Shown in pieces: positions 3,184 to 56,710 of a DNA stretch of 64,000 bases. The notes under the pieces were generated by a model. It was not told where the DNA came from, ran no database searches, and was given only the letters and a program-made list of their open reading frames with translations. The position numbers and the translations under genes are program-made. Origin of the DNA: a virus (Duplodnaviria; Heunggongvirae; Uroviricota; Caudoviricetes); IMG/VR virus record IMGVR_UViG_3300033049_000033, positions 1 through 64,000 of that record; one strand, written 5' to 3'. Position 1 is the stretch's first letter, and the number at the start of each line of letters is the position of its first letter.

Positions 3184-3372
3184 ATGGCAGAAAAAATTAA
3201 TATACCCGTAAGATTTCCTAACGAATCGTATGCGATAAACGTTCCAATAGATTTGGACGAATTCAAATCTAAAGTGACTTTTGATGATGTTACCTTCGGA
3301 TGGTGGGGCGACATCTATGTAAACATAGAAAATAAATACCTACCTGATAGTAAACTCGTAAAAGAATCGTGA
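3184..3372 (+). CDS. hypothetical protein
   Basis: 62 aa ORF starting 1 nt after the sigma-factor stop; no motif. Confidence 0.35.
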   Translation: MAEKINIPVRFPNESYAINVPIDLDEFKSKVTFDDVTFGWWGDIYVNIENKYLPDSKLVKES

Positions 3373-3838: not shown

Positions 3839-4057
3839 ATGGATTTAAGATTTAACAACCAATCACTTAAACATGGCATCGATGAACTCGTTGCCAACGA
3901 ACCAAAAATCGTACCTGAGAAGGGCGTTCTTGGTGGCTTTTCAATTGATTTCGTCTCTAATCCAGAGGCAAATACAACTGAGAACATCTTATATAAGGAT
4001 GCTGAGGCCAGAGACCAAGATTTTGAGTTATTAATCGAACACTTAACCAAAGCTTAA
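3839..4057 (+). CDS. hypothetical protein
   Basis: 72 aa ORF; stop overlaps next start. Confidence 0.4.
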   Translation: MDLRFNNQSLKHGIDELVANEPKIVPEKGVLGGFSIDFVSNPEANTTENILYKDAEARDQDFELLIEHLTKA

Positions 4058-4305
4058 TGTTTTTTACTTATTTATTTTATACCACCATATCAATTGGTGT
4101 AATATTTGGAGTATATAAATTATTCTTGTTATTGAAAACTTTATATGAAAAGAAAACCATATTCATATATAATATAACCGACAATAGTGTTCGTAAATGT
4201 GTAAAATGTGATAATAAGCAACGCAAGTTCGAAGGTTATAAAGGTGTCGAATGGAATACCTTTAAGAAGAATCCAAACTGTGCTTGTCGAAAATATGTAG
4301 TATGA
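4057..4305 (+). CDS. hypothetical membrane protein with C-terminal Cys cluster
   Basis: 82 aa; N-terminal TM helix; CVKCDN...CACRK zinc-ribbon-like. Confidence 0.4.
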   Translation: MFFTYLFYTTISIGVIFGVYKLFLLLKTLYEKKTIFIYNITDNSVRKCVKCDNKQRKFEGYKGVEWNTFKKNPNCACRKYVV

Positions 4306-4565
4306 GAGTAGTACAGACCAACGTTAATCAACACATTATGGTTAAGCTAACTCCTAAAGGGATTGAGCATTGGATGGAGGATGTAAACTCGAATCTACCA
4401 ACACACCTCAAACTTACACCAGATATCGTTAAAAATAAAATGGACGACAAAGGGTTCCACACTTTCCAGATTTGGGAGTTTATGGAGATATTCGGAGCAA
4501 AAAGTGGTATGGGAATGCCGACACTATTTGAAACCGAGGTCTTGATAGAAACATCAGTACAATGA
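4302..4565 (+). CDS. hypothetical protein
   Basis: about 87 aa; start at MRVVQ assumed because the upstream ATG overlaps the previous gene; stop overlaps next start (ATGA). Confidence 0.4.
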   Translation: MRVVQTNVNQHIMVKLTPKGIEHWMEDVNSNLPTHLKLTPDIVKNKMDDKGFHTFQIWEFMEIFGAKSGMGMPTLFETEVLIETSVQ

Positions 4566-5224
4566 AAGAGATTAAAGAAACATGTTATAAGGGTACTAGG
4601 ATTCTAATCGGAAACGAGAAGAGAGTAATAACTAATAAGCTAATTGTCAGTATGTTGGCTGCTGGTTTTACCGAGATTTCTATGCCTGTTATCCAACTAT
4701 CTGATACTTTTGATGGTAAGGTGGGCACTGAGAATAACAACCTTATGTATAAGTTTACAGATAGAGGTAATAGAGACCTGTGTTTGGCTCCAGAATATAC
4801 GGCTGTTATACAAGAGTTGGCTAAGACTAAATTGAAGTTTAATAACAATGAAAGGTTATTCTACGTCCAAGAGTGTTTCAGAGGTGAGAAGCCACAAGCT
4901 GGTAGATACAGACAATTCACTCAAGTAGGAGTAGAGGTATTGAATCCTACTGACGACCCTTTAAATGATTTGACTTGGTTAGAGAAATTGGCTAATTTAG
5001 CTGAAGGCATGGTATGGACTTGTCTTCCAGAAGATATAGATTTCACGGTGAACGTGAACATGAATGTGACAAGAGGTTTGGATTATTATAAAGACGGTAA
5101 GGGATTCGAAATTACCATTGATGAGCTTGGCAGTTCCAAGCAAGTAGTTGGAGGAGGAGAGTATGACGGTGGTGTCGGTTTCGCATTGGGACTGGATAGA
5201 ATTTTATCGTTACGCAGAATGTAG
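4562..5224 (+). CDS. minimal histidyl-tRNA synthetase-like class II aaRS catalytic core (HisZ/HisRS paralog)
   Basis: 220 aa; motif 1-like LAPEYTA, motif 2 ECFRGEKPQAGRYRQFTQVGVEV, motif 3 region RGLDYY...GGGEYDGGVGFALGLDRI; no insertion or anticodon-binding domain; motif 3 Arg replaced by Glu. Confidence 0.75.
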   Translation: MKEIKETCYKGTRILIGNEKRVITNKLIVSMLAAGFTEISMPVIQLSDTFDGKVGTENNNLMYKFTDRGNRDLCLAPEYTAVIQELAKTKLKFNNNERLFYVQECFRGEKPQAGRYRQFTQVGVEVLNPTDDPLNDLTWLEKLANLAEGMVWTCLPEDIDFTVNVNMNVTRGLDYYKDGKGFEITIDELGSSKQVVGGGEYDGGVGFALGLDRILSLRRM

Positions 5225-5278: not shown

Positions 5279-5986
5279 ATGAAACGAGATTTAACAAATG
5301 TAAAGGGATATATCTATAAGCTTACCAGCCCTAATGGTAAGACATACATAGGACAAACAGTTAATAAGAAACAGCGTAAGTATCACTATAATTCGGGAGA
5401 CTTTAAACAACAGACAAAGTTATGGAATAGTGTTAGTAAGTATAATTGGAATCCAGCCGAAACTTATGAAATAATTGAAGAATGTTTATGTGGAGTAGAT
5501 AAAGAGATATTAAATAAACGTGAAACGTATTGGATTGACCATTATAATAGTTTTAAATCTGGGTTAAATTGTAATGTTGGGGGTGATGGGAATTTAGGTA
5601 ACCAGCATAGTGCCGAATCTAAACGTAAAATGAGTGAGGCTAAAATTGGGGTTAAACACCCAGATTGGCGTAACGAGCAAAAAAGAGAATACACTAAAGG
5701 GCGTAAGCATACAGATGAGGCAAAACTTAGAATGAGTGAAGCTAAGATAGCTAACATGACAGATGATGTTAAATCTAAGATTAGTGAAGGGTTGATGGGT
5801 AACCAAAATGGTATAGGTAATTCTGGTAGCCCTAAAAAGGTAGTATGCTTAACCAACAATAAAATATATAATAGTATTAAGGAAGCGGCAAACGAATTGG
5901 GATTACACTCGTCTAATATTATTGCAACTTGTAAAGGTAAACAAAAATATACTGGTGGATATAAATTTAAGTATAATGAAGGATAA
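5279..5986 (+). CDS. GIY-YIG homing endonuclease (I-TevI/Seg-like) with NUMOD3 repeats
   Basis: GYIYKLTSPNGKTYIGQT...RKYHY GIY-YIG motif; repeated HSAESKRKMSEAKIG / HTDEAKLRMSEAKIAN (NUMOD3-like); C-terminal HTH-like KVVCLTNNKIYNSIKEAANELG. Confidence 0.85.
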   Translation: MKRDLTNVKGYIYKLTSPNGKTYIGQTVNKKQRKYHYNSGDFKQQTKLWNSVSKYNWNPAETYEIIEECLCGVDKEILNKRETYWIDHYNSFKSGLNCNVGGDGNLGNQHSAESKRKMSEAKIGVKHPDWRNEQKREYTKGRKHTDEAKLRMSEAKIANMTDDVKSKISEGLMGNQNGIGNSGSPKKVVCLTNNKIYNSIKEAANELGLHSSNIIATCKGKQKYTGGYKFKYNEG

Positions 5987-6725
5987 GAAGAAAATAGTCG
6001 TATTCAGTGGGGCTGGATTGGATAGAGAGTCAGGCGTGAAGACATTTAGAGATAACGAAGATTCTCTGTGGGAGAATTATAATATAGACGATGTGTGTAC
6101 TCCTAACGGATGGAGAAAAGACCCACAATTAGTAACAGACTTCTATAATGAGCGTAGAATGGAATTGGCTAATGTCGAACCTAACGATGCTCATATCGCA
6201 TTAGCCAACTTAGAACGTATTGCCGATGTAGTACATATTACACAAAATGTGACCGATTTATTAGAACGAGGTGGGTCTACATTTGTTCATCACTTACATG
6301 GTGAATTAGGTAAGGTACGAAGCGTAGCTGACGCTAACGAGATATATGATTACGGCACCAAACCTGTTCATTTAGAGGAGGATAGGGCTAAACATAACGC
6401 TAGGCTAAGGCCACACATTGTTTGGTTTGGAGAAATGCCAGACGTAAAGTCGGTTAAGAAAGCATATAAAGTTATATATGAATGCGATGTATTATTGATT
6501 GTAGGTACAAGCCTACAAATTAGTTACACGTTAGATATGTTGATGCAAGCATCGTTAACATGTGAAGTCTATTTCATTGACCCTAACCCAGTTAAATACC
6601 TCGATAGATATACGGATTTAGGTATGATGCCTAATATTACATACATTAAAAAGAATGCTACTGATGGTGTTACAGAAATTGTTAACCGCTTATTAGAACA
6701 AGATGAGTCAGAAGAAGGCAATTAA
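5976..6725 (+). CDS. Sir2-family (sirtuin-like) NAD-dependent protein, zinc-ribbon-less
   Basis: 249 aa from ATG 5976 (overlaps GIY-YIG stop); FSGAGLDRESGV (GAGxS), TQNVTDLLERGG...HHLHG (catalytic His), LLIVGTSLQI; no Cys in the region where sirtuins carry the Zn module. Confidence 0.8.
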   Translation: MKDKKKIVVFSGAGLDRESGVKTFRDNEDSLWENYNIDDVCTPNGWRKDPQLVTDFYNERRMELANVEPNDAHIALANLERIADVVHITQNVTDLLERGGSTFVHHLHGELGKVRSVADANEIYDYGTKPVHLEEDRAKHNARLRPHIVWFGEMPDVKSVKKAYKVIYECDVLLIVGTSLQISYTLDMLMQASLTCEVYFIDPNPVKYLDRYTDLGMMPNITYIKKNATDGVTEIVNRLLEQDESEEGN

Positions 6726-7005
6726 GTACGAGGTATTAGAAGATGCCAAATACGATGAGTTGGGTAAGATTACTGACGTTAGGTATACCGTTAGGTATCA
6801 ATATAGAAATTGGATAGGTATACTAACTTGGAGCTATGTAAAACATAGGGAATCTAGTTATGGTGGGTCATACATGAGAAGAACTACGTTTAAAACAATC
6901 AAAGAGGCGAATAACTTCGTTGAGGAGGTATTGGTTAAAGGAACCCCAGTAAATACATGGTCAGAGAAAACAATCATAAGATATGATTTAGAACATGAAG
7001 ACTAA
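6703..7005 (+). CDS. hypothetical protein
   Basis: 100 aa ORF overlapping the Sir2 3' end. Confidence 0.4.
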   Translation: MSQKKAIKYEVLEDAKYDELGKITDVRYTVRYQYRNWIGILTWSYVKHRESSYGGSYMRRTTFKTIKEANNFVEEVLVKGTPVNTWSEKTIIRYDLEHED

Positions 7006-7378
7006 GGATAAGTCCAAAATTAGATTTAATCTTAGTAGAGGTGACCACTATATGAAGTGGCAGATACGAGACCCACATGGTAATGTTGAATACTACGAAC
7101 CTTCTGAAGTCACTTTAGTGATGGAGGAGTGTGTCTTACGCAACAATAAACGAGGAGCTAAAGAAATATTCAGTGGTGGTGACAAGACTGTTGTCGCTTG
7201 GGTAGAATGTGCGAAAGTAGAGGTATTTAGACGTGTTGCCATCAAGAGTATGAAGGATACTAAGGTTGAATACAATCCTAAAAAACAACCATATTGGTAT
7301 ATCAATGGAGAGGACTCTGATAAAGTAGAGTTGTCCATGATTCATTCAGTAGGGAGGGAGCTATTCACATCAAATTAA
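6995..7378 (+). CDS. hypothetical protein
   Basis: 127 aa ORF; no motif. Confidence 0.45.
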   Translation: MKTKDKSKIRFNLSRGDHYMKWQIRDPHGNVEYYEPSEVTLVMEECVLRNNKRGAKEIFSGGDKTVVAWVECAKVEVFRRVAIKSMKDTKVEYNPKKQPYWYINGEDSDKVELSMIHSVGRELFTSN

Positions 7379-7457
7379 ATCAAATTTATTTTTATTTATA
7401 GTTGTTTTTCTCGAATATTATTCGTATATTTGTAGTACCAAAACATTAAGATAGAAC

Positions 7458-8888
7458 ATGAAAATTAAACAGATTCTGGACGAGATAGCCAATGAGCCGT
7501 CAACTAATAACAAAATGACAATCCTCAGAAAGTATGAGGAAAATAACACACTTAAGAGAGTCCTGTACATGGCCAAATCAAAGAGGCTAAAGTACTATAT
7601 CAAACAAATACCAGAATATATTATACCAGCACTATATCCAAAGATGACACTGGAAGAAGCACTGGAAGAATTAACTCCATTATTAGAACGTACTGTTACT
7701 GGACATGAGGCCATTAAGCATTTAGCAACCATTTTAGGAAGTCTTGAGTCTGATGATGCATACGTTATTGAACGTATCATTGATAGGAGCCTTAAAATTG
7801 ACATGGGCACCTCCAACATCAACAAAGTATTTCCAGCACTAATCGAGAAGACCCCATATATGGGAGCTAAGTCTTTTGATGAGAAACTTGTGCGTAAATT
7901 ATTTGACGGAGTTCAAGTTGACCCTAAGTTAGCTGGTAAGCGTGTATATAGTCAAATCAAAGAAGATGGACGTTATGCAAATGCTATCATTCGTGATGGT
8001 GAAGCCGAATTTGAATCTCGTTCTGGTGAGACAACTCATGTTGGTGATGCACTGGTACTGAAAGAGTTAGCCCAATTTGGAGATTGCGTACTTAACGGAG
8101 AACTTACCATTAAAGGACTTGACCGATATACTGCAAATGGTATCATCGCATCAATCGTTGATATTGAAGGTAAGCGTGAGTCTCGTACCGAAACGGAAAC
8201 ATCTAAAAAGCTTACTAAATTTGAAGGAAAGCATGGTAATTACCCTGAGATGTTAAATAGAATTGAGTATGTTATCTGGGATTGGATTCCAGTAAGTGCA
8301 TATTTTGACCAGAAATGTAACATTCCATATAGAGTTAGGTTAGATTGTGTGTTAGAGTTAAAAACTCTTTATAAAATAACTTTAGTTAGAGTGGTAGAGA
8401 CGATACAAGTGGACACTTATGCTGAGGCAATGGAGCACTTTGTAAATGCTTTAGATAGAGGATTGGAAGGTACTATCGTTAAAGCTAGTGATAGTACATG
8501 GAAACACGGTAAACCAAACTGGCAGGTGAAAATGAAACTTGAGTTGACTCTTGACTTCAGAATCATTGGGTTCAACTATGGAAATAAAGGTACTAAAAAT
8601 GAGAACGTTATTTCAACATTACAAGTGGAATCTGAGTGTGGGTTATTGAAGACCAATCCGTCTGGAATGGACGATGAGATGATGCAATTCGTCACCGATA
8701 ACCAAGATACTCTTATGGGTACGGTTGTGGAAATGAGATGCTGTGGGCTATCCCAAGATAGTAAGGGTAATTGGTCAACGATGCACCCATCAGTAGTGAA
8801 GCTACGTGACGATAAAGATGTTTGTGATACTCTGGAGACGGCAAAGCAGGTTGAAGAGATGGCCAAGTCGTTAGAAACAGAAGTATAA
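7458..8888 (+). CDS. ATP-dependent DNA ligase (T4 Lig-like)
   Basis: 476 aa; motif I KEDGRY (SQIKEDGRYANAII), motif IV EGTIVK, motif V WQVKMK; preceded by AT-rich promoter region. Confidence 0.85.
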   Translation: MKIKQILDEIANEPSTNNKMTILRKYEENNTLKRVLYMAKSKRLKYYIKQIPEYIIPALYPKMTLEEALEELTPLLERTVTGHEAIKHLATILGSLESDDAYVIERIIDRSLKIDMGTSNINKVFPALIEKTPYMGAKSFDEKLVRKLFDGVQVDPKLAGKRVYSQIKEDGRYANAIIRDGEAEFESRSGETTHVGDALVLKELAQFGDCVLNGELTIKGLDRYTANGIIASIVDIEGKRESRTETETSKKLTKFEGKHGNYPEMLNRIEYVIWDWIPVSAYFDQKCNIPYRVRLDCVLELKTLYKITLVRVVETIQVDTYAEAMEHFVNALDRGLEGTIVKASDSTWKHGKPNWQVKMKLELTLDFRIIGFNYGNKGTKNENVISTLQVESECGLLKTNPSGMDDEMMQFVTDNQDTLMGTVVEMRCCGLSQDSKGNWSTMHPSVVKLRDDKDVCDTLETAKQVEEMAKSLETEV

Positions 8889-8902
8889 TAAATAAACAAG
8901 AA

Positions 8903-9148
8903 ATGGGTGAAAGTGAATACTACTTAAAGGCTAAGGAACTTGGGTTGACTGAAATAGATAGATGGGAACAAGGTATTGAACACCACCTAATGTCCGAGAA
9001 GCTTATGTTGTTTCTATGTGACCATGATTTACTTGATTACGATGATTATTTCGGTTGGAAGCAAGGTGGAGACGGAGATAATGGAGAAACGTTAATGTTC
9101 CAGATGGACGCATTCTTCGAGCTATTAGATAATGAATATGACACATAA
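8903..9148 (+). CDS. hypothetical protein
   Basis: 81 aa acidic ORF. Confidence 0.4.
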   Translation: MGESEYYLKAKELGLTEIDRWEQGIEHHLMSEKLMLFLCDHDLLDYDDYFGWKQGGDGDNGETLMFQMDAFFELLDNEYDT

Positions 9149-9486
9149 TGAATAAAAGAGACACACATAAAGTTATCACTAGAGGAGCTAAGGTCAGTAC
9201 AAGAGCAAATGGACAATCATTTTACACTCCATTTGCTCTAATACGAGAACCTATATTCTGGGGATTAATTAATTTTACGTTCAAATACGTGATAATCGAT
9301 TGGACTAAACTTGGACATCCAAGCTTGGTTTGGTATCAAAGATTGGGTACCATGTTTGAGGCTGAAAACTACGGTTCTGCGCACGATGCTTTCATGGCTC
9401 TAGACAAATGTATTGATGCCCATTTTAATAGTATGGAGTACGAGGAACAGATTAAGGTAGTAGAAGAATATAATATAACAATGTAA
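9148..9486 (+). CDS. hypothetical protein
   Basis: 112 aa ORF, ATGA-coupled. Confidence 0.4.
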   Translation: MNKRDTHKVITRGAKVSTRANGQSFYTPFALIREPIFWGLINFTFKYVIIDWTKLGHPSLVWYQRLGTMFEAENYGSAHDAFMALDKCIDAHFNSMEYEEQIKVVEEYNITM

Positions 9487-10847: not shown

Positions 10848-11096
10848 ATGGTACAAGAAATAGAAATGACAAAAGAAGAGCAAATGACAATGTATATGAA
10901 ATGCTCTAAAAAAGAACTATGTGAAATGCTGATTGAAGCAAATAAGCACTTAAAAAACTTACCTATACACGTTGTTACCCAACGTAGTGAACTGGTTTGT
11001 GATTGTTTGCCAATGAGTACGCAAGTAAGCACTATAAATGGTAGATACATTTGCTGTACTTGTAATAAACCGCTCTTATCACAAACTTGTGGGTAA
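10848..11096 (+). CDS. hypothetical protein with Cys cluster
   Basis: 82 aa; CDC...CCTCNKP zinc-ribbon-like; followed by the intergenic motif. Confidence 0.4.
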   Translation: MVQEIEMTKEEQMTMYMKCSKKELCEMLIEANKHLKNLPIHVVTQRSELVCDCLPMSTQVSTINGRYICCTCNKPLLSQTCG

Positions 11097-11175
11097 CGTT
11101 TAGTATAAGATTAGTGCGCTAAACGATAAACTTTGAATTAAGCACTAACATAGCCAAGCGCATTAATTTTATACA

Positions 11176-11466
11176 TTGTTATATGTAGTGCGTGTAAATA
11201 AAAAACAGAAAATGACACATACAAAAGGGAATGTAATAGTAGAAGAAATAAAGGTTGGTGACATTCATTATGAATACGACCTTGGACTTGGAATTAAAAC
11301 TGAAGTGTTAACCAAACCAACGCTAAATGAAGATGGTAATTGGACTTGGAAAAGCAAGAATGTAAATAGTAATAAAAAAATTGATTATTTGGTTGACCCT
11401 AAATACCCACATTATTCTGCCAACCTTTATGACTATGAGGCTTACAATGTGAAGCATTACATATAA
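11176..11466 (+). CDS. hypothetical protein
   Basis: 96 aa ORF. Confidence 0.4.
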   Translation: MLYVVRVNKKQKMTHTKGNVIVEEIKVGDIHYEYDLGLGIKTEVLTKPTLNEDGNWTWKSKNVNSNKKIDYLVDPKYPHYSANLYDYEAYNVKHYI

Positions 11467-11588
11467 CGTTCTTTGTGTATGAAAAGTAGCCCATGCACAA
11501 GGTTTCGGATTAGTAAAAAGTTAGTAGGCTATTTTTGATAAACATTGTTGTGTAGTAGTACGGATTATTAACCTATAAACTTTATAAA

Positions 11589-11834
11589 ATGGACACAAAA
11601 CAAAAATACGTTAGACTGAAAGAGTATGATGAGATAATAATATTTCCTCAAATAATACAACACTCTGAATTTTCAAACATGAACCCCGTATCTGCTGGAT
11701 TTTGCCATGTGCATAAAGACAAAGTGGTGTGCTTTGGTGAAAGCATAAGTTTAGGATTGAAAAGCAAGGAAGATGATACGCTGATGGCAACTAAACAGAT
11801 ATACGGCTGGGACGCTTTGAAAGCGATAATGTAG
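11589..11834 (+). CDS. hypothetical protein
   Basis: 81 aa ORF; followed by the intergenic motif. Confidence 0.4.
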   Translation: MDTKQKYVRLKEYDEIIIFPQIIQHSEFSNMNPVSAGFCHVHKDKVVCFGESISLGLKSKEDDTLMATKQIYGWDALKAIM

Positions 11835-11864
11835 TATTACACACAACGGTCTAGTATAAACGCA

Positions 11865-12113
11865 GTGCGGATAAATAAAACAAAAATTATGATACATACA
11901 ATACACACAGTAAAAGAAATGTATGCTAAGGAACTTGGTTATGAAAACTGGGAAACTTGCATAAATGACCAACCTAATTATAAAGTAGAAGAATTAATGG
12001 ATGAAGTAGCATTGCGTTTATGCATTGTTGTGAAATCGTTGCCTAGCGAAATTGAAATAGGTAAGGCAATGAGTGATTTAAGCGATATAGCCAATAAGGA
12101 AGCGGAAAGATAA
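11865..12113 (+). CDS. hypothetical protein
   Basis: 82 aa ORF. Confidence 0.4.
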   Translation: MRINKTKIMIHTIHTVKEMYAKELGYENWETCINDQPNYKVEELMDEVALRLCIVVKSLPSEIEIGKAMSDLSDIANKEAER

Positions 12114-12177: not shown

Positions 12178-12969
12178 ATGACAACAATAATTACAAAGCA
12201 ATCCGAACTCTTTGTGAGTGGTTTAAGTGTAAAAAACTATTCCAAATCCACTATTGACCAATACAACTCTATTCTTAAAAAGTTTTTAAGGTTCTTTCGT
12301 AAGTCCCCTAATAGAATATCATCTGATGAAATAGTCTTGTGGTTATCAAAATTAAAATCATCATCCGCAAAAAGGCAAGCGGTTGGGGCTATTCGCAATT
12401 ATTATACTCACGTAGTTGGTCAACCGAATAAATTCAAGAGAGTACCTTATCCAAAGAAGGAACGAATCCTACCTCAAATATTTTCTCAACAAGTAGTAAT
12501 TAAAAGGATTGGTAGGGTTAAAAATTTTAAGCACAAGATGATTATTTCGGTTCTATATGGTTCGGGAATAAGGCTTTCGGAGTTACTTGATTTAAAATTA
12601 AGTGATATTGACGGGGTTAGGAATACTTTATTCATCAGACATGGAAAGGGAAGAAAGGACCGCATAGTTCCCGTGTCAGTGAAATTAATTTCAGACCTTA
12701 GAAGGTACTTCAAAGAGTATCGACCTAAAGGTTATTTATTTGAAGGGCAAACTGGTGGTAGATATTCAGGGACTTCAGTTCAGAAAATTTGTAAGAAACA
12801 CATGAAGTGCAATCCACATTTATTACGACACCAAAATTTGACACACTTAATAGAATCGGGAGTTCATTTATCTGAAGTAAGTCGTAGGGCTGGTCACTCG
12901 AAAATTTCGACTACACATGATGTTTACAGCCATATAATCACAACATTCAACCCTATAACACTATTATAA
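12178..12969 (+). CDS. tyrosine site-specific recombinase (XerC/D-integrase family)
   Basis: 263 aa; N-terminal SAM-like domain; catalytic R (GIRLSEL), HLLRHQ (HxxR), GHSKISTTHDVYSHI (Tyr nucleophile). Confidence 0.8.
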   Translation: MTTIITKQSELFVSGLSVKNYSKSTIDQYNSILKKFLRFFRKSPNRISSDEIVLWLSKLKSSSAKRQAVGAIRNYYTHVVGQPNKFKRVPYPKKERILPQIFSQQVVIKRIGRVKNFKHKMIISVLYGSGIRLSELLDLKLSDIDGVRNTLFIRHGKGRKDRIVPVSVKLISDLRRYFKEYRPKGYLFEGQTGGRYSGTSVQKICKKHMKCNPHLLRHQNLTHLIESGVHLSEVSRRAGHSKISTTHDVYSHIITTFNPITLL

Positions 12970-12974
12970 TATAT

Positions 12975-13010
12975 TTGGTTTTGTCAAAATAATTTTGTAT
13001 CTTTGTATTA
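12975..13010 (+). promoter_or_regulatory. Bacteroidetes-type promoter (TTTG-N19-TATCTTTG) for the RNA ligase N-fragment gene
   Basis: TTTG at 12975-12978, TATCTTTG at 12998-13005. Confidence 0.55.
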
Positions 13011-13042: not shown

Positions 13043-13843
13043 ATGGAACTAGCGATAGTTAAGTACATAAAAGAACATGGTTTAGCGAAAGCTATTAAAG
13101 ATTTTAGTCTTAAGTCTAGAATTTACCAAGATAAAATTTTACTAAAATATGACCAGCTTAACTCACCATTCGGTAATAGAGAAGTTGAAGAATGTAGAGG
13201 TCTCATTTTAGAACGAGATACTTGGAGAGTTATGTCTCTTGGTCTAACCAAGTTCTATAATTCTGCTGAGGGTCACGCTGCTAAAATTGGTTGGGATACT
13301 GCTAGAGTCTTGAAGAAAGAAGATGGTTGTTGTCATAGAGACACTATCCTTAAGACTGAGGATGGTGATATGACCATTAAAGAAATCTGTGATACTGAAT
13401 ATGCTGGTAAGGTTCTATCTTACGATATTGAATCTGGGGAAACCGTATATGACGAGATAGTAGCTCATTCGACTAAAAATAATATCGATAATTGGTATGA
13501 AATTGAGTTAGAAGATGGTACTACCATTAAATTAACTGCTAACCATAAAGTATGGTTACCGAATCTTAATTGTTACAGGGCAGTAGAAAACCTTACTGAG
13601 GACGATGAATTCTTAGTGTTAAACATTAGTGATATGGAATATATAAAATGTGTCGATAAGTTCGGTAACGAAGTAAAGGATGGTGATTTAGTGGACATAC
13701 AAAAAGCTGGTGCTTATAAGGTTTATAAAAAGAATAGCCAGCTTTACTTTAAACCTTATGGTGAAGAAGAAAGGGTGTCTGCTTATTTTAGTAATGACAT
13801 GGTAAAGTGTGATGAAGATGGATGTTGGTTAGATGTGACCTAA
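13043..13843 (+). CDS. RNA ligase 1 (T4 RnlA-like) N-terminal fragment fused to the N-part of a split intein
   Basis: N-extein ECRGLILERD...ARVLKKEDG (nucleotidyltransferase motif I) ends at 13327; CCHRDTILKTEDG (intein block A) and LTANHKVW (block B) follow; ORF stops at 13843. The upstream ATG at 12995 lies inside the promoter, so 13043 is used. Confidence 0.75.
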   Translation: MELAIVKYIKEHGLAKAIKDFSLKSRIYQDKILLKYDQLNSPFGNREVEECRGLILERDTWRVMSLGLTKFYNSAEGHAAKIGWDTARVLKKEDGCCHRDTILKTEDGDMTIKEICDTEYAGKVLSYDIESGETVYDEIVAHSTKNNIDNWYEIELEDGTTIKLTANHKVWLPNLNCYRAVENLTEDDEFLVLNISDMEYIKCVDKFGNEVKDGDLVDIQKAGAYKVYKKNSQLYFKPYGEEERVSAYFSNDMVKCDEDGCWLDVT

Positions 13844-13957
13844 TCGCATATAGATAGAATTTCACCAAGCACGTTAGAATATTTAGTTTTAAAATAAGAG
13901 GACGATTATCTAACTTTTCCAGTACTTGAGACTATTTATGGTTAAAGGTATTAGATT

Positions 13958-14899
13958 ATGGAAAAGATGATATGTGAAAAGTGTGGTGGTGAGTTTAGTA
14001 ACAAGATGTTTAAGTTGCACGTTAAGAATTCACATTCAGATGAATTTGACTCAAACGAAGATTTAGATAGATTTGTTCTTAAATATCGATTTAACTTAAC
14101 TGATGAATTTCTATCCGAACTCATCTCTGAATACAAAGAGGTGGGTTTGGTTGACCGATTAGTTAAGAAATATAACATACCACATAAAAGTATGTCAGAA
14201 ATACTTTCACTAAATGGCGTTACTTTAAATACCTTTAAGGAAGCTTGCTCACTACCACATAAACATCAAGCTTATGTGGACACATGTAAAGATAGATACG
14301 GTGTGGAGAATGTATCCCAGTTAGAATCAATTCAGAAGAAAAAAGAGGATACATTCCTTAAAAATTATGGTGTAACTAACATCTTCAAAGACCCTGAAGC
14401 GCAAAAGATGTTCGGTGAGGTAATAGAAGAAAGATATGGTAGTAAAAGATTAAGTGGTTGGCACAAATTAGGTGCTGGTGGTAAGATAGAGTGGCTTAAG
14501 CGATTAAATTCCAGTAGGGGTAAGCAATCGAAGCTAGAACTAAGGGTGGGGAATATCTTAACGGATTTAAGTGTTAATTGGGAACCACAATATGAGATTA
14601 AAGGTAAATACTACGACTTCAGAATAAAGGGGTTAAAGTTGCTTATAGAGGTGAATGGAGATTTTTGGCATGCAAATCCTGAGAAATATAGGGCTAACGA
14701 TATACTACCGTTCCCGACTAAGAATGGTGTAAAAAGTGAGATTACTGCCAAATCATTGTGGAAGAAAGATGAAAAAAAATTAAAGATTGCTAGGAATTGT
14801 GGTTTTTTTTGTGTATCTTTGTGGGAGAATGATATGAAATGTATGTCTGACGAAGAGTTAGGTATTAAATTATTAGACATAATAAACAACATTATCTAA
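13958..14899 (+). CDS. free-standing Vsr-like (PD-(D/E)xK) homing endonuclease between the split-intein halves
   Basis: 313 aa; N-terminal CEKCGG zinc-finger-like; C-terminal LLIEVNGDFWHANPEKY resembling the Vsr FxDGxFWH motif. Confidence 0.7.
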   Translation: MEKMICEKCGGEFSNKMFKLHVKNSHSDEFDSNEDLDRFVLKYRFNLTDEFLSELISEYKEVGLVDRLVKKYNIPHKSMSEILSLNGVTLNTFKEACSLPHKHQAYVDTCKDRYGVENVSQLESIQKKKEDTFLKNYGVTNIFKDPEAQKMFGEVIEERYGSKRLSGWHKLGAGGKIEWLKRLNSSRGKQSKLELRVGNILTDLSVNWEPQYEIKGKYYDFRIKGLKLLIEVNGDFWHANPEKYRANDILPFPTKNGVKSEITAKSLWKKDEKKLKIARNCGFFCVSLWENDMKCMSDEELGIKLLDIINNII

Positions 14900-14908
14900 T
14901 TTAATAAG

Positions 14909-15157
14909 ATGGAAGAAAGGTTAAACAGATTAACAGAGCAACGGGGTTCAATGAACAAACAAACAACAACCATAGAGATATTAGACTATATAGAAAATCT
15001 GTTAGAGATAGAGAAGGAAGATTTTAGACGAAAACAATTAAAAGCTGTGTCTGATGGAAATCAAGATTATCATGGTGCGATAACATGTGCAACAGCAAGG
15101 TCTGTTACTATGGGAATACTAAGTACAATAATGACTGACACTATTGATTGTAGGTAA
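14909..15157 (+). CDS. hypothetical protein
   Basis: 82 aa ORF between the endonuclease gene and the C-intein gene. Confidence 0.3.
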   Translation: MEERLNRLTEQRGSMNKQTTTIEILDYIENLLEIEKEDFRRKQLKAVSDGNQDYHGAITCATARSVTMGILSTIMTDTIDCR

Positions 15158-16127
15158 TAACGCAATTATGAAAATAATTAAAATTAAAAGAATTAGTAAG
15201 TTGGCGTCAGACTCTAAGAGGTATGATATCGAGACAAAGAATACTCATAATTTCTTTGCTGATGGTATTCTAGTGCATAACTCTTGCATCAACCTATACT
15301 ACGACTGGATTAAGGAAGAGTGGTTCGCTGCTACTACTGGTATGGCAGAGGGTGAGGGTGAAATCAATAACCGTGAGAATACCTCATTCAACGACTTGTT
15401 CTGGGAAACCGTTAGGAACAAGTATGATGAGGATAAGTTCAAGGATAACTTGGAGATTGGTTTCACTTACGTTTTTGAATTGACCACTCCGTATAATATA
15501 GTTGTTGCACCTCATACCGAATCTAGGGTAACCTTATTAACCATCAGGAGTCTGCGTAACTTAAAAGAGTTAGCCTCATCAATATGTTTTGCGGAAGCCT
15601 ATGGTCTAGGGGTACCAATTGTCGAGGAATATGACCTTAATAGCGGTAATGTTGAATTTCTTTTAAGGACATTCGAGAATATGGACGCTTTTTCGGAGGG
15701 TTACGTAGTTGTAGATGATAAATTCAATCGTATTAAGATAAAGAATCCAAAATACGTAGCGATTCACCATTTAAAATCGAAGACATCTTCATATGCAATT
15801 ATGGAGATAATAAAATCTAATGAAGTAGATGAGTTTATCGCCACATTCCCTGAAAGAGAAGTAGAAATCAAAGCACTTAGGGTTAGTTATAATAACCTAA
15901 TTGTGGAATTAGAAGCTTTGTGGGGCATACTTGAAGTTCATAAACCAAAGAATATTACACCAGCAGAACGTAAGAAATTCGCAACCAAAGTTTTCGAGGT
16001 GGTTGATGTCAACGATAAAAAGACGTTCACAGGGTTATATTTCGGTCTTATGGACGGAAAAGTAACTTCAATTGTGGATTATATCCGAAACATGGACAAT
16101 AAAAGACTTTTCGCTTTATTAACTTAA
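15144..16127 (+). CDS. C-part of split intein fused to RNA ligase 1 C-terminal fragment
   Basis: MKIIKIKRISKLASDSKRYDIETKNTHNFFADGILVHN (Npu DnaE IntC-like) ends at 15281; C-extein starts SCINLYYD so the joined junction reads KEDG-S (T4 Rnl1 motif I is KEDGSL); EGYVVVDDKFNRIKIKNPKYV matches Rnl1. Likely start is the Met at 15168. Confidence 0.75.
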   Translation: MIVGNNAIMKIIKIKRISKLASDSKRYDIETKNTHNFFADGILVHNSCINLYYDWIKEEWFAATTGMAEGEGEINNRENTSFNDLFWETVRNKYDEDKFKDNLEIGFTYVFELTTPYNIVVAPHTESRVTLLTIRSLRNLKELASSICFAEAYGLGVPIVEEYDLNSGNVEFLLRTFENMDAFSEGYVVVDDKFNRIKIKNPKYVAIHHLKSKTSSYAIMEIIKSNEVDEFIATFPEREVEIKALRVSYNNLIVELEALWGILEVHKPKNITPAERKKFATKVFEVVDVNDKKTFTGLYFGLMDGKVTSIVDYIRNMDNKRLFALLT

Positions 16128-16816
16128 AGCAATAGGTCTTTCTTATCTACCCTATTAATTTTACTACACAATGGTTGGAGATTGGCGTAATGGTTTAGCG
16201 CTATCACATCATCTTCACTGTTAGCACTAGATATCGGTACAATATGGTCAATATCCCAACCATATCCGTATTCTCCATTATATTTACCATAATTATCCCA
16301 ATTCATCCAATCCTCCAATTGTGATTCAATATGTAATTTGAATTCATCGAATGAGCACCCAAGTATCTTATAAGTCTTAGATTTTTTAGTGTAGCCGAAC
16401 CTACGAATAGCATGACATATCAAACCTCTTGCAGCAACCGACATTCTAAACACTGGGTCAGTTTTAACTTTCTTTCTCACATAATTATTAATGTGTTCCC
16501 TGTTATTAGTGTCCCACACCTTTTTGTCTTCCCTAATTTTAGATTTGTTATTTTCCCTATACTCTTTCTTTTTCGCTAAAATGCGTTTACGATTTGTGAT
16601 ATGGTACTTTTTTACCCGTTTTTCTATATGCTCTTTATTTTCAATCTCATAGACTCTACGTTTCTCCAATAAAGAATCACGATTCTCATTATAAAGTCTT
16701 CTACGTTCGGCATTAATATTGTCCTTGTTTTGTTCGTATAGTTCTTTACGTTCACGATTTATTCGCTCTTTATTGGCTTCGTACCATTCTTTTTTCCTAA
16801 CCTGTTCCTTAGTCAT
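16124..16816 (-). CDS. HNH homing endonuclease (paralog 2)
   Basis: 230 aa; seven 15-aa basic repeats (KEWYEANKERINRER, KELYEQNKDNINAER ...); C-terminal GCSFDEFKLHIESQLEDWMNWDNYG...WDIDHIVPISSA...NLQPLC. Confidence 0.8.
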   Translation of the reverse strand: MTKEQVRKKEWYEANKERINRERKELYEQNKDNINAERRRLYNENRDSLLEKRRVYEIENKEHIEKRVKKYHITNRKRILAKKKEYRENNKSKIREDKKVWDTNNREHINNYVRKKVKTDPVFRMSVAARGLICHAIRRFGYTKKSKTYKILGCSFDEFKLHIESQLEDWMNWDNYGKYNGEYGYGWDIDHIVPISSANSEDDVIALNHYANLQPLCSKINRVDKKDLLL

Positions 16817-43180: not shown

Positions 43181-43783
43181 TCATAGCATGTTATTTTGTT
43201 TAATATATCGGTTAGTATAACTACATAATGGTTGTAGGTTAGTGTAATGATTTAGCTTAATAACATCAGAGACATTTTTAGCTGTGGCCAATGGTATTAT
43301 ATGGTCAACATCCCATGCTACGTTAGGCTTATCGGGGGTACCGTTCCAGTTACCTTTATTATTCCAATTCATCCATTCTTCGAATTGTCTTTCTAAATGT
43401 AAGAGTAGCTCTTCGTAAGTACATCCCAATATTAACTCAGTTTTACTTGGTTTAGGTGTACCTATCTGATTAAATGATGCCCAGATGCAGGTTTTAATAT
43501 TTTTTTTTAGTTTATACAATGGGTCTTGAATTATTTTGTTACGTTGATATTCCCTCATATGTTCTTTATTATTAGCCCTCCATGTTCTTCCGTAGTCTAA
43601 TTGTTGTTGTTTATTTTTATCGTACCATTCTTTTTTCTGTTTTGCTATTTTATCAGCATTTCTTTTTAGGTATGCTTTTCTTACTTCTTTATTGTATGCC
43701 ATATTATTTGCGTTTCTTAATAAATATGAGATAATAAGTAGAAGTACACATTTATCATCTTTTATGTACACAAATGTGTACAA
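43181..43783 (-). CDS. HNH homing endonuclease (paralog 3)
   Basis: WDVDHIIPLATA...NLQPLCSYTNRYIK; GCTYEELLLHLERQFEEWMNWNNKG; true start probably MAYNKE at 43702 because the first 27 codons read through the palindrome. Confidence 0.75.
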   Translation of the reverse strand: MYTFVYIKDDKCVLLLIISYLLRNANNMAYNKEVRKAYLKRNADKIAKQKKEWYDKNKQQQLDYGRTWRANNKEHMREYQRNKIIQDPLYKLKKNIKTCIWASFNQIGTPKPSKTELILGCTYEELLLHLERQFEEWMNWNNKGNWNGTPDKPNVAWDVDHIIPLATAKNVSDVIKLNHYTNLQPLCSYTNRYIKQNNML

Positions 43784-53730: not shown

Positions 53731-54414
53731 TTAAAATTCGTCCCTCTTTATATATCTATTGTTATAACTACATAGAGGTTGTTGATTTTTGAAATGGCAT
53801 AGTTCTAATAATTCGTTTTCCGTATTCGCTGTTGATAATGGAATTATATGGTCTAAATCCCAACCATGATTAAGTTCTCCATTATATTTACCATAGTTAT
53901 CCCAATCCATCCAATCCTCCCATTGTGACTCAATATGTAGTTTGAATTCTTCGTAAGTACATCCCAGTATTTTATATGTCGTAGAAGTCTTAGAGTATCC
54001 CTTATCTTTGAGTAATATAGAAATCCTACTTCTTAAATTAATTGTCAGTTTATATAGTGGGTCTTTTGCCACCCTATTAGTACGATAATTTCTATTGTAT
54101 TCTCTAATTTTTTCTCTATTGGAGTCATAGTACTTTTTCTTTGCTAATTTTGTTTGTTCTGGTCGTTCTCTGTTATAAGCTACTAACCTATCTTTATTCT
54201 TTTTTGCGTATTGCTTAGTCGTTTCTTTAATTGTATCTTTATTAATAATACGATATTCTTTGATATAAGCCTTTATATGTTCCTTATTAGCTTCACGCCA
54301 TTTTCTTCTTCTTATTAATCGCGCTTCTTTGGTTTGTTTCATTATGTTGTTTTTATATAAATATGGGGGAACTTGTAAAAATGTTAAGGAATGCATGAAG
54401 ACCTCCAGAAACAA
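53731..54414 (-). CDS. HNH homing endonuclease (paralog 4)
   Basis: basic repeats; GCTYEEFKLHIESQWEDWMDWDNYG...WDLDHIIPLSTA...NQQPLC. Confidence 0.8.
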   Translation of the reverse strand: MFLEVFMHSLTFLQVPPYLYKNNIMKQTKEARLIRRRKWREANKEHIKAYIKEYRIINKDTIKETTKQYAKKNKDRLVAYNRERPEQTKLAKKKYYDSNREKIREYNRNYRTNRVAKDPLYKLTINLRSRISILLKDKGYSKTSTTYKILGCTYEEFKLHIESQWEDWMDWDNYGKYNGELNHGWDLDHIIPLSTANTENELLELCHFKNQQPLCSYNNRYIKRDEF

Positions 54415-56204: not shown

Positions 56205-56710
56205 TTAAAAGTCAATTTGGTCACATTTTATATACCTATTGACGTATGAGCATAGTGGTTGAAGATTAGTATAATGATTCAGTCTGATTACATCTTCTTC
56301 TGATGTTGCTGACGAAATTGGTATTATATGGTCAATATCCCAACCATAGTTCAGTTCACCATTATATAAGCCCCTATTATCCCAGTTCATCCATGATTCA
56401 AAGTTAGATTCCAAATGTAGCTTAAATTCTTCAATTGTGCAACCTAAAATCTCATATGTAGTAGATTTTTTTGTATAATTATACATTCTAAATATATTAC
56501 CAATCATTCTCTTAACTTTTCTTTTTAGTAAATAAATTGGGTCGTTGAGACTCTTGGTTTTATTCCAAGAAGACCTACTTTTACTAATCTTATTCTATCT
56601 GACATAACAATATCATTAGTTAAACAATATTTTTTATATTGTTTTCTCATTATTTTTTCCATTAAGAATGTGATTCGAACTGGTTCTGCCTTAAATTTCC
56701 GTATATTCAT
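56205..56710 (-). pseudogene. decayed HNH homing endonuclease (paralog 5, frameshifted)
   Basis: 100-aa C-terminal ORF (56205-56507) retains GCTIEEFKLHLESNFESWMNWDNRG...WDIDHIIPISSA...NLQPLC; upstream DPIYLLKRKVKR continues in frame without a start; the repeat-like segment MRKQYKKYC (56525-56710) is in another frame; A/T homopolymer runs. Confidence 0.6.

Follow-up and report, generated by a model that had tools for sequence, protein, structure and literature searches.

How can an RNA ligase gene that is interrupted inside its own active-site motif still give rise to an enzyme? This question is posed by a phage genome, IMG/VR record IMGVR_UViG_3300033049_000033, of which 64,000 nucleotides (the window) were analyzed. 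Two adjacent same-strand ORFs of the window jointly cover one intact RNA ligase 1 (Rnl1), and a first-pass annotation had read the locus as a "fractured gene". Fractured genes were described in metagenomic phage genes by Dassa, London, Stoddard and Pietrokovski in 2009 as a split intein combined with a free-standing GIY-YIG or Vsr-like endonuclease (PMC2677866). Our analysis indicates that the locus is very probably of this kind: a phage Rnl1 split by a class-1 split intein, together with a free-standing EDxHD endonuclease.

The ligase halves and the split intein

All four ORFs are present where the first-pass annotation had placed them. The N-terminal ORF reads ARVLKKEDG/CCHRDTILKTEDG...LTANHKVW from the ATG at 13043 to the stop codon at 13841-13843; a TTG at 12995 was set aside as its start, as ATG 13043 is used in all homologs. 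Its first 95 residues (13043..13327, plus strand) are the Rnl1 N-extein, which ends in motif I (K-K-E-D-G) and whose catalytic lysine is the counterpart of T4 K99 in an alignment to T4 Rnl1. The C-terminal ORF (15168-16127, starting with ATG 15168) reads MKIIKIK...GILVHN/SCINLYYD, and its last 281 residues (15282..16127, plus strand) are the C-extein, beginning with the +1 Ser nucleophile and holding motifs III (FELTTP), IV (EGYVVV) and V (IKIKNP) and the C-terminal domain. The break thus falls within motif I, after the Gly of KxDG and before the Ser that follows (KEDG/S), exactly at the ligase active site as first proposed. Neither half contains a frameshift or internal stop, and the ligase motifs and intein catalytic residues are all intact.

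Profile searches supported the assignment of both halves to one protein. Positions 38-108 of PHROG 562 (Rnl1) fall in the N-terminal ORF and positions 107-366 in the C-terminal ORF. The N-fragment alone scored 25.0 bits on PF09511 (profile positions 1-56), under the cut-off of 28.3, and the joined extein scored 54.8 bits in a single stretch (positions 1-227); indeed, Pfam cut-offs were passed only by the joined exteins and the joined intein. The joined extein also matched the structures of T4 RNA ligase 1 (RnlA; 2c5u, 5tt6) with E=4e-14 over T4 residues ~50-324, with KEDGS paired to T4 KEDGS, as the first-pass annotation had expected. Residues kept in common with T4 Rnl1 are R54, K75, motif I K99-E-D-G-S, motif III E159, motif IV E227-G228 and motif V K240/K242; no counterpart of T4 K119 was evident in this alignment. 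Intein-less homologs aligned to the joined extein without a gap, and motifs I, III, IV and V showed no variation in the homolog alignment of 9 sequences. On NCBIfam TIGR02308, the T4 RnlA equivalog, the joined extein reached 70.4 bits against a cut-off of 242.25. The predicted reconstituted ligase is hence a divergent Rnl1-family member outside the RnlA equivalog cut-off and, unlike T4 Rnl1, it is encoded in two pieces.

The N-intein (IntN; 13328..13621, plus strand; 98 homologous residues) matches PF14890, Hint and TIGR01445 (29.0 bits vs cut-off 24.5), with Cys1 in block A (CCHRDT) and the T-x-x-H of block B (LTANH). The C-intein (IntC; 15168..15281, plus strand; 38 aa) matches PF14890 profile positions 121-155 and TIGR01443 (33.1 bits vs 15.6), with block F RYDIE and block G ILVHN; when joined, the two halves score 58.3 bits on PF14890 against a cut-off of 35.8. 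These results bear out the earlier reading of blocks A and B (LTANHKVW) in the N-terminal ORF and of the 38-aa segment before SCINLYYD as a C-intein. The proposal that 13328-13843 as a whole is N-intein holds for 13328..13621 and fails for the last ~71 residues, which are discussed below.

Conservation across the family is consistent with a working class-1 intein, the complete residue set of which is present (C1, T70, H73, D119, H136, N137 and S+1). C1, T70 and H73 of IntN are invariant or almost so in 24 pairs, and Y118, D119, V135, H136 and N137 of IntC are invariant in the intein family. Relatives of the N-fragment were found by an alignment-based scan of viral contigs, and 50 unique intein pairs were recovered; Cys1 is present in 50/50, the terminal HN in 48/50 and a +1 Ser or Cys in 49/50. 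The halves show the charge complementarity of split inteins, with an acidic IntN (net charge −14) and a basic IntC (+4), the family means being −8.4 and +3.1. Judged by comparisons of the window with relatives, purifying selection on IntN, IntC and the exteins is strong (dN/dS of 0.03-0.06 for IntN and 0.13 for IntC). A single-sequence AlphaFold model of fused IntN and IntC reached a pLDDT of 37.6, too low to inform on the fold.

Searched against solved structures, the intein family profile matched the NrdJ-1 split intein over its full length (8ubs, 9omb; E=4e-24), itself a classic intein of fractured genes and thus the closest solved relative, followed by gp41-1 (9e-11). The two share the block A, B, F and G residues, the break point (IntN of ~100-105 aa, IntC of ~38-40 aa) and the ending ...NFFAN(D/G)ILVHN followed by Ser, with an identity of roughly 30-35% as estimated from the alignment rather than computed. 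They differ in extein and site: NrdJ-1 interrupts a ribonucleotide reductase, whereas the window intein lies in ligase motif I with G(−1)/S(+1) flanks. Cyanobacterial DnaE (Ssp/Npu) is likewise a natural split class-1 intein with charge-complementary halves, and its trans-splicing rebuilds an essential enzyme. However, it matched the profile much more weakly (about 2e-8), and the genes for its halves are distant from each other and do not enclose an endonuclease, whereas those of the window flank an endonuclease gene.

The cassette between the halves and its neighbours

The intein part of the N-terminal ORF comprises 171 aa, compared with 98-112 aa in the 50 relatives, because of a lineage-specific in-frame insertion of 270 nt (90 codons; 13618..13887, plus strand; junction coordinates 13607 and 13877). 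DNA alignment with two related loci, L003 (the closest relative) and L001, placed this insert at the 3' end of the IntN gene, where it took the ancestral stop out of the reading path; it is missing from all other related loci surveyed. A relic of the ancestral IntN end (E-Y-L-V-L-K-stop; 13877..13897, plus strand) was recognized by frame translation and by alignment with the ...EFLVLEK-stop of L003, and it is still contiguous with the conserved 5' UTR of the endonuclease gene. A long duplicate of the IntN end, UTR and endonuclease start flanking the insert was rejected (score 30 vs a mean of 22.6 and a maximum of 38 in shuffles).

The insert carries a small promiscuous phage module (MEYIKCVDKF...WLDVT; 13634..13843, plus strand), which has its own ATG at 13634 and is in frame with IntN. 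Relatives of this module form 123 representative clusters and are either stand-alone proteins of 62-98 aa, which also start with M-x-Y-I-K-C, or parts of mosaic phage proteins, one of which carries an HNH nuclease as well. No Pfam or PHROG family matched the module. Judged by these sequence relationships, the last ~71 residues of the N-terminal ORF are an unrelated, widespread small phage module and not intein. Such a 71-aa C-terminal extension of IntN is unusual and was counted against the fractured-gene reading.

Between the halves lies a gene for a free-standing homing endonuclease (13958..14899, plus strand) of 313 aa, which has a C2H2-like finger at the N terminus, DUF7487 repeats and, at the C terminus, a Vsr-like (EDxHD) nuclease domain. 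No PDB sequence matched this protein significantly, and fold comparison was needed to reveal the Vsr / I-Bth0305I (EDxHD) fold, confirming the Vsr-like signature noted initially. According to the residue definition of the EDxHD/Vsr-like family (PMC2677866), and with Vsr numbering mapped by eye from the motif IEVNGDFWH, the domain has residues matching Vsr D51, F67-W68-H69 and D97 and the family-specific Glu at Vsr F62. Among D220, E231, D235, F236-W237-H238 and D271 of the domain, D220, E231 and W237-H238 do not vary in 32 homologs and F236 and D271 hardly do, and the full-length window protein keeps every invariant catalytic residue. The dN/dS of the gene against its 79%-identical relative is 0.045. 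Cut-offs for repair Vsr proper were not reached (PF03852, 18.7 vs 27; TIGR00632, 19.3 vs 97.85), so the protein is no repair enzyme of that type, in keeping with its reading as a homing endonuclease. The prototype of EDxHD homing endonucleases, I-Bth0305I (Taylor et al. 2011, PMC3239194; structure 3r3p), sits in a group I intron of recA, whereas the window enzyme is free-standing between intein halves and has an N-terminal part made up of the finger and DUF7487 repeats. A predicted RNA hairpin in the 5' UTR (13907..13972, plus strand; MFE −17.1 kcal/mol) covers the AUG with its 3' arm; it is of moderate strength (z=−2.2 in the window, z=−3.0 in L003), and of 15 related loci, most have a similar hairpin that extends to the AUG.

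Other genes nearby appear not to belong to the arrangement. The first-pass annotation had drawn attention to an upstream tyrosine recombinase gene and an 82-aa ORF between the halves. Both are present, at 12178..12969 and 14909..15157, respectively (plus strand), but they occur in none of ~160 related loci and are therefore neighbours rather than parts of the conserved arrangement; the recombinase was accordingly rejected as an element component. It is XerA-like (PF00589, 3.6e-25; NF040815, 168.6 bits, under the cut-off of 220), and the 82-aa ORF, an orphan between the endonuclease gene and IntC, has no match in Pfam, PHROGs, NCBIfam or the related loci surveyed. An HNH-like gene (16124..16816, minus strand; weak HNH match, E=0.021) has a 4-nt overlap with the stop of the C-fragment. 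It belongs to a set of six paralogs within the window, shows 78% nucleotide identity to huge phage LR756502, and is a neighbour, probably a further selfish element. Rfam searches of the window returned no group I intron or other RNA element, no tRNAs were found there, and promoter and terminator scans gave nothing above chance. A Pnkp-like healing-enzyme partner, queried with an LR756508 neighbour, was absent from the window, which is only part of the genome.

The locus thus shares with the fractured genes of 2009 the order and orientation of its parts (N-extein-IntN, endonuclease gene, IntC-C-extein), the endonuclease family, the 5' UTR hairpin, phage origin and a conserved active-site motif as the site. 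Every element of the architecture claimed in the first-pass annotation was found: the motif I break, the intein halves (TIGR01445, TIGR01443, NrdJ-1 match), the separate EDxHD gene between them and the phage context. It differs from those genes in the module fused to IntN, in the orphan ORF within the cassette and in its host gene. The hosts listed in 2009 are gp41 helicase, IMPDH, DnaE, NrdA, NrdJ, a DNA ligase, terminase and one unknown (PMC2677866); none is an RNA ligase, in line with the earlier remark that the host departs from known cases. In the literature that could be searched, which covers few subscription journals and in which absence is not proof, we found neither a report of a fractured Rnl1 nor one of an Rnl1 intein, and deposited phage genomes yielded no fractured Rnl1 either. 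The arrangement is therefore of a known kind, and Rnl1 appears to be a new host for it.

Related loci and alternative readings

More than 60 clusters of N-fragment proteins, and a similar set of C-fragment proteins, occur in metagenomes; a single C-fragment protein used as query against viral contigs found no relatives. The related loci form a graded series with a full endonuclease, a remnant or none. In L003, a nearby C-fragment is missing, and some lineages may accordingly be in decay. In the L001 sister lineage, the cassette holds a methyltransferase-like gene in place of the endonuclease of the window. An intein-free allele of that lineage (P0053/L167) is 100% identical to the predicted spliced protein; the DNA differs at 7 positions, all synonymous and all within −6 to +30 nt of the insertion site, and these differences are a homing footprint. 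The match between this contiguous allele and the predicted product lends indirect support to trans-splicing. This empty/occupied pair shows mobility of the family, not of the window copy; the window's own lineage yielded no empty allele of near identity. Besides Rnl1, three ligase families are interrupted by inteins of this family at motif I or close to it, namely PHA02142-type RNA ligases (PF21189 + PF09414), PF09414-only RNA ligases and an NAD-dependent DNA ligase.

Could the split itself be an error? A continuous intein with an internal endonuclease domain, broken up by sequencing or assembly, had been raised solely as an a priori possibility by the first-pass annotation. A second, independent assembly from JGI agrees at 20,941/20,942 bases over 20.9 kb (99.995%) and has the same stops and frames, so the stop and frame change at 13843/13844 are genuine. 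Dozens of independent contigs, at 40-90% identity, again show the IntN stop, the IntC start Met and a separate ORF for the endonuclease, whose gene is equipped with a UTR, hairpin and start codon of its own. An artefact is therefore scarcely conceivable. Another alternative has the intein halves holding the ligase together non-covalently, with no peptide bond being made: split-intein halves bind tightly, and some fractured genes have no inteins at all (the SbcD-like case, PMC2677866). We regard this as highly improbable, given that residues needed only for splicing (Cys1, the block B T/H, the terminal HN and the +1 Ser/Cys) are invariant or almost so family-wide, and that a HINT domain of ~140 aa in motif I, beside the catalytic lysine, would probably obstruct the active site.

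Whether the window copy still functions is a separate matter. It could be a decaying relic in which the ligase is no longer reconstituted, for instance because the 71-aa module blocks association or splicing, with the ORFs on their way to becoming pseudogenes. The 270-nt insert and the loss of the ancestral IntN stop are confined to this lineage, unrelated genes (the 82-aa ORF and the module) have gathered inside the cassette, and the closest relative lacks an adjacent C-fragment. Yet the catalytic residues, motifs and frames are intact in both halves, and selection on IntN, IntC and the exteins is strong. C-terminal fusions to IntN are usually tolerated in split-intein engineering, and the module, having its own ATG, may simply be a passenger gene; decay is thus quite improbable. 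Somewhat less remote, though still unlikely, is a real split whose endonuclease no longer homes, being inactive or in another role, so that the cassette is inherited only vertically. Related loci with endonuclease remnants, endonuclease loss or other cargo would agree with this, as would the usual homing cycle of invasion and then decay and the missing near-identical empty allele; against it stand the full-length endonuclease with all invariant catalytic residues, its low dN/dS and its conserved hairpin. The fractured-gene reading, with a splicing intein and a homing endonuclease, is the one that we develop below.

Proposed mechanism and significance

From homology, we infer trans-splicing, ligase activity, and endonuclease cleavage and its target, and propose a plausible mechanism for the locus. 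Two polypeptides would be made, one consisting of the N-extein (95 aa), IntN (~99 aa) and the 71-aa segment, and the other of IntC (38 aa) and the C-extein (281 aa). The acidic IntN would bind the basic IntC, and the pair would fold into a HINT domain. Trans-splicing would then proceed through Cys1, the block B Thr/His, the block F Asp, the terminal His-Asn and Ser+1, yielding a 376-aa ligase with the KEDGS active site intact. With the lysine nucleophile in the N-half and motifs III-V in the C-half, neither half is expected to be active alone. The endonuclease, the start codon of which lies in the hairpin, would, in co-infected cells, cleave rnlA alleles that lack the intein, close to the codons of motif I, and repair would copy the whole cassette into the cut allele (homing).

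On a wider and tentative reading, which we consider possible though rather less than an even bet, a single lineage of split intein and EDxHD endonuclease has used the DNA of motif I (K-x-D-G) as a shared landing site and jumped repeatedly among Rnl1, PHA02142-type, PF09414-only and NAD-dependent DNA ligases, with the gap between the halves acting as a neutral cargo bay. The family-wide distribution and varied cargo are seen directly in the related loci, where the gap holds an endonuclease, a methyltransferase-like gene, a promiscuous 65-aa module or orphan ORFs. The endonuclease was presumably the driver of these jumps between families, which seem not to have been described before.

RNA ligase 1 serves phages in RNA repair and, in T4, acts against the anticodon nuclease with which the host defends itself. 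If the proposed mechanism is correct, the ligase would join the short list of proteins made by natural trans-splicing and, as the break lies three residues past the catalytic lysine, its activity would depend strictly on splicing. The locus also points to natural split inteins related to NrdJ-1, a sizeable family whose junctions are Gly(−1)/Ser(+1) or Cys(+1) and whose members are candidate tools for protein engineering. The empty and occupied alleles offer an unusually clean natural trace of how a cassette is gained or lost and point to the likely endonuclease target. As four ligase families host one and the same intein family, the switching of exteins at a motif that they share can be put to the test.

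Two halves of an RNA ligase and their intein

The first-pass annotation described four ORFs at this locus, and all of them are present, on one strand, in the ORF listing of the window. The N-fragment ORF (12995/13043–13843) starts at ATG 13043 (MELAIVKYIKE…) and the C-fragment ORF (15144/15168–16127) at ATG 15168 (MKIIKIK…), both starts being fixed by homologs; between them lie the endonuclease ORF (13958–14899) and ORF82 (14909–15157). The N-fragment reads …ARVLKKEDG up to the extein/intein boundary and continues as CCHRDTILKTEDG…LTANHKVW… to a stop codon at 13841–13843. The C-fragment consists of MKIIKIKRISKLASDSKRYDIETKNTHNFFADGILVHN followed, across the intein/extein boundary, by SCINLYYD….

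Profile searches and alignments bore out the proposal that the fragments are halves of one RNA ligase, broken at motif I (KEDG-S). The two ORFs cover the PHROG 562 (Rnl1) profile contiguously, at positions 38–108 in the N-ORF and 107–366 in the C-ORF. The N-fragment alone scored 25.0 bits on Pfam RNA_lig_T4_1, below the cut-off of 28.3; once joined in silico, the extein (376 aa) reached 54.8 bits, as one uninterrupted match to profile positions 1–227. Compared with T4 Rnl1 crystal structures (E = 4e-14), the joined extein aligns KKEDG-S with T4 K99-E-D-G-S and keeps T4 residues R54, K75, E159 of motif III, E227-G228 of motif IV, and K240 and K242 of motif V; no counterpart of T4 K119 was evident in this alignment. 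Eight contiguous ~376-aa homologs align with it at 51–70% identity, without a gap at the junction. Because the joined extein fails the NCBI equivalog cut-off for T4 RnlA (70 vs 242 bits), we class it as a divergent member of the Rnl1 family and not as an RnlA equivalog. With the catalytic Lys in the N-half and motifs III–V in the C-half, neither half would be able to act alone.

Alignment of blocks A/B and F/G likewise confirmed N- and C-intein halves (IntN and IntC) at the break. The IntN region matches Intein_splicing, Hint and TIGR01445, the latter two over their cut-offs, and the IntC region matches Intein_splicing (121–155) and TIGR01443, the latter over its cut-off. On Intein_splicing the separate halves scored 33.4 and 25.9 bits, both under the 35.8 cut-off; the joined intein scored 58.3 bits on PF14890, against the same value. 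Among inteins of solved structure, the best match is NrdJ-1, which belongs to the split inteins first described from fractured genes. Single sequences matched it at E = 1.8e-7 in both halves; an intein profile of 24 IntN+IntC pairs matched NrdJ-1 over its full length (E = 4.3e-24) and gp41-1 at 9e-11. The 24-pair alignment shows no variation at block B Thr70, the Tyr-Asp of block F or the terminal Val-His-Asn, and almost none at His73. Fifty unique pairs from related loci have an IntN of 98–112 aa and an IntC of 34–40 aa, with Cys1 in 50/50, a terminal His-Asn in 48/50, and Ser (36) or Cys (13) as the first C-extein residue (+1). As in known natural split inteins, IntN in the window is acidic (net charge −14) and IntC basic (+4).

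As far as sequence data allow, a sequencing or assembly artefact as the cause of the split was ruled out. A second assembly (L165; JGI, sample 3300029226) shows 1 difference from the window in 20,942 bases and the same stops and frames, so the stop and frame change on which the initial reading depended are real. Moreover, the fragments recur in metagenomes, as >60 clusters of 193–205-aa N-extein+IntN proteins and many 315–329-aa IntC+C-extein proteins. Among the 120 matches listed for each of the N- and C-fragment searches, none had the length of a cis-intein form, about 510 aa or more. The parts are under purifying selection: Nei-Gojobori dN/dS values against relatives were 0.03–0.06 for IntN, 0.13 for IntC, 0.045 for the endonuclease and 0.05–0.15 for the N-extein, ratios that are rough since synonymous sites are near saturation.

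At 171 aa, the IntN part of the window ORF is an outlier relative to those 50 pairs. DNA alignment with the related loci L003 (closest relative of the window N-fragment) and L001 revealed that exactly 270 nt (90 codons) have been cleanly inserted five codons 5′ of the ancestral IntN stop; the ancestral end, E-Y-L-V-L-K-stop, is still readable at 13877–13897, where it directly adjoins the conserved endonuclease UTR. Within the insert lies an entire small gene (MEYIKCVDKF…WLDVT*), which has an ATG of its own at 13634 and is in frame with IntN. Its product (13634–13843; IKCxDKF…GDxVDVQK…YKK…QLYFKPYG…YFSNDMxKCD) is a promiscuous, undescribed phage module of ~65 aa, for which no Pfam or PHROG entry was found. 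The family is widespread (123 representative clusters), occurring alone or inside mosaic phage proteins that also carry zinc-ribbon-like and other small modules, including one HNH nuclease fusion. A long duplicate flanking the insert was suspected and dropped as not significant.

The endonuclease gene and its surroundings

The 313-aa middle ORF matches DUF7487 (2.6e-8), PHROG 3339 "homing endonuclease" (2.6e-12) and, weakly, Vsr (1.5e-3); many of its 95 homologs are JGI-named "very short patch repair endonuclease". Across 32 aligned homologs, D220, E231, G234, D235, W237, H238, N240, P241 and Y244 are invariant, and F236, D271, W289 and E290 nearly invariant. Dassa et al. (PMC2677866) defined the Vsr-like family by a residue constellation that includes an extra Glu at the Vsr F62 position, and this constellation, extra Glu included, is present in the window endonuclease. 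A true repair Vsr was considered and rejected, the protein scoring under the repair-Vsr cut-offs. The Vsr-like endonuclease gene that had been reported between the halves thus stands, by its DUF7487 and PHROG 3339 matches and its conserved residues: it is an EDxHD/Vsr-like homing endonuclease, with DNA cleavage as its predicted activity. For the window (z = −2.2) and L003 (z = −3.0), RNA folding predicts a hairpin whose 3′ arm covers the endonuclease start codon; comparable hairpins occur in most of 15 related loci and recall the regulatory hairpin described for fractured genes.

Two further elements of the first-pass annotation held only in part. The 82-aa ORF is present between the halves, and no homolog of it was found in Pfam, PHROGs, NCBIfam or the related loci surveyed. 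The tyrosine recombinase immediately upstream of rnlA is also present (12178–12969; XerA-like, compact at 263 aa, with the R…HxxR…Y set intact as judged by eye), and it is absent from every related locus surveyed. Its position is occupied by a GIY-YIG endonuclease in L003, and a TnpB-like gene lies a few genes upstream in L001; this flank thus varies between loci, and the recombinase counts as a neighbor, not as a component of the arrangement.

Six HNH-like paralogs with 41–60% amino acid identity (16124–16816, 53740–54336, 56220–56561, 1005–1556, 57497–58024 and 43184–43678) lie on the minus strand, while nearly all other genes of the window are on the plus strand, and they have the appearance of one family of selfish, free-standing endonuclease genes. 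There is a 4-nt overlap between the copy at 16124–16816 and the rnlA C-fragment stop, and this copy shows 78% nucleotide identity to LR756502, an uncultured phage of 642 kb. Elsewhere, a 220-aa HisRS-like ORF (tRNA-synt_His; 4562–5224), about half the usual length, is directly followed by a GIY-YIG/NUMOD homing endonuclease gene (5279–5986; phrog_314, E = 3.5e-36), and is possibly a second gene that has been truncated or disrupted by an endonuclease. The window is phage-like (nearly all genes on one strand, about 35% G+C), from a large genome of lytic appearance, and encodes a sigma-70-like factor, Sir2, an ATP-dependent DNA ligase, a peptide deformylase, an SPFH protein and many endonucleases; among deposited phages, its only nucleotide matches are unannotated 635–642-kb "uncultured phage" genomes.

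Occupied and empty alleles

Our survey of 166 loci showed that fractured Rnl1 genes form a graded series according to what stands between the halves: a full endonuclease (e.g. L012, L013, L086, L087, L096), endonuclease remnants (L017–L021, L025), an endonuclease on the opposite strand (L030, L042, L061, with more divergent Rnl1-like ligases), other cargo (L001), or a nearly empty gap (114 nt in L014, 151 nt in L085). This is the pattern that a homing cycle of invasion followed by decay predicts. In L001 the cargo between the intein halves (8646–9308) is a DNA-methyltransferase-like gene (phrog_757, 1.5e-25); in the same contig, a DUF559/Vsr-like nuclease with a C2H2 finger is encoded on the minus strand at 11003–11875, about 500 nt downstream of the C-fragment and opposite to it. 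L003/L005 (5566–8866) is the nearest relative of the window N-fragment (90%) and endonuclease (79%). It lacks a C-fragment in the 2.3 kb downstream, a stretch that is not syntenic with the window; upstream, at 3209–3319, is a 37-aa duplicate of the rnlA N-terminus beside a GIY-YIG/NUMOD endonuclease gene.

About 60 loci are intein-less alleles in which the N- and C-exteins abut precisely. At +1, occupied alleles have Ser (15/15) and empty alleles Thr (27/42) or Ser (15/42). When the L001 halves are spliced in silico, the product is 100.0% identical to one contiguous 376-aa protein, P0053 (L167; SRR5251696, Logan assembly), making L167 (whole, 1575 nt) and L001 7573–10492 intein-free and intein-containing alleles of the same Rnl1, from a sister lineage of the window (85% N-fragment identity). 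The empty junction, …GAGGACGGG|TCCTGCATAAATCTT…, corresponds to the L001-type joined junction, …GAGGATGGT|TCTTGCATTAACCTA…. The predicted splice junction gains support from this natural allele, in which the exteins are contiguous at precisely the same point. In DNA sequence, identity between the two alleles is 100% upstream (709 nt) and 99.4% downstream (862 nt). All 7 differences are synonymous and lie −6 to +30 nt from the insertion point (empty, GAC GGG|TCC TGC ATA AAT CTT … CAC; occupied, GAT GGT|TCT TGC ATT AAC CTA … CAT); such a cluster is what co-conversion, or immunity of the target site, would be expected to leave around a homing site. The 484-kb uncultured phage LR756508.1 (L166) likewise has a contiguous Rnl1 (3989–5140), with Thr at +1. 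Two genes downstream of it, an HD-domain and P-loop kinase-like ORF (6721–7713; motifs judged by eye) is a possible RNA end-healing partner, of which no relative was found in the window.

Other ligases and known fractured genes

Homologous IntN/IntC pairs also fracture other ligases, usually with the same endonuclease family in between (L034–L084, L111, L116; e.g. L036 3393–4822, L048 535–1931, L058 509–964, L047 7100–8543). The insertion point is motif I itself (KxDG|S/C) or lies two residues further on: the junctions are KLDG|S and KLHG|S in PHA02142-type RNA ligases (PF21189 + PF09414), KMDGEN|C and KIHG|S in PF09414-only RNA ligases, and EKLDG|C in an NAD-dependent DNA ligase. In the PHA02142 family, the intein also uses another site, KTDExR|CQN, which precedes motif I by about 20 aa. 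The one locus that Dassa et al. (PMC2677866) give as a "DNA ligase" may belong to this multi-ligase group. In Salmonella phage S16 and relatives (e.g. NC_020416.1 105277–105594), an IntN-like segment with 39% identity to the window IntN lies within DNA helicase/"uvsW_1" genes, which suggests a related, possibly split intein in UvsW of cultured T4-like phages.

The fractured-gene arrangement has been known since 2009, and RNA ligase 1 is not among its reported hosts (Dassa et al., PMC2677866). Among the papers searchable in full text, none was found that reports an intein in Rnl1, and in a 2025 survey of actinobacteriophage inteins the ligase hosts were of the RtcB type only. No fractured Rnl1 was found in 50,697 deposited phage records, the one candidate, LR756508, having a contiguous gene; public protein sets annotate the fragments as "hypothetical protein". 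We therefore rate RNA ligase 1 as a new host protein and insertion site for a known kind of fractured gene, and consider the distribution across four ligases and the empty/occupied allele pair to be by-products worth following up.
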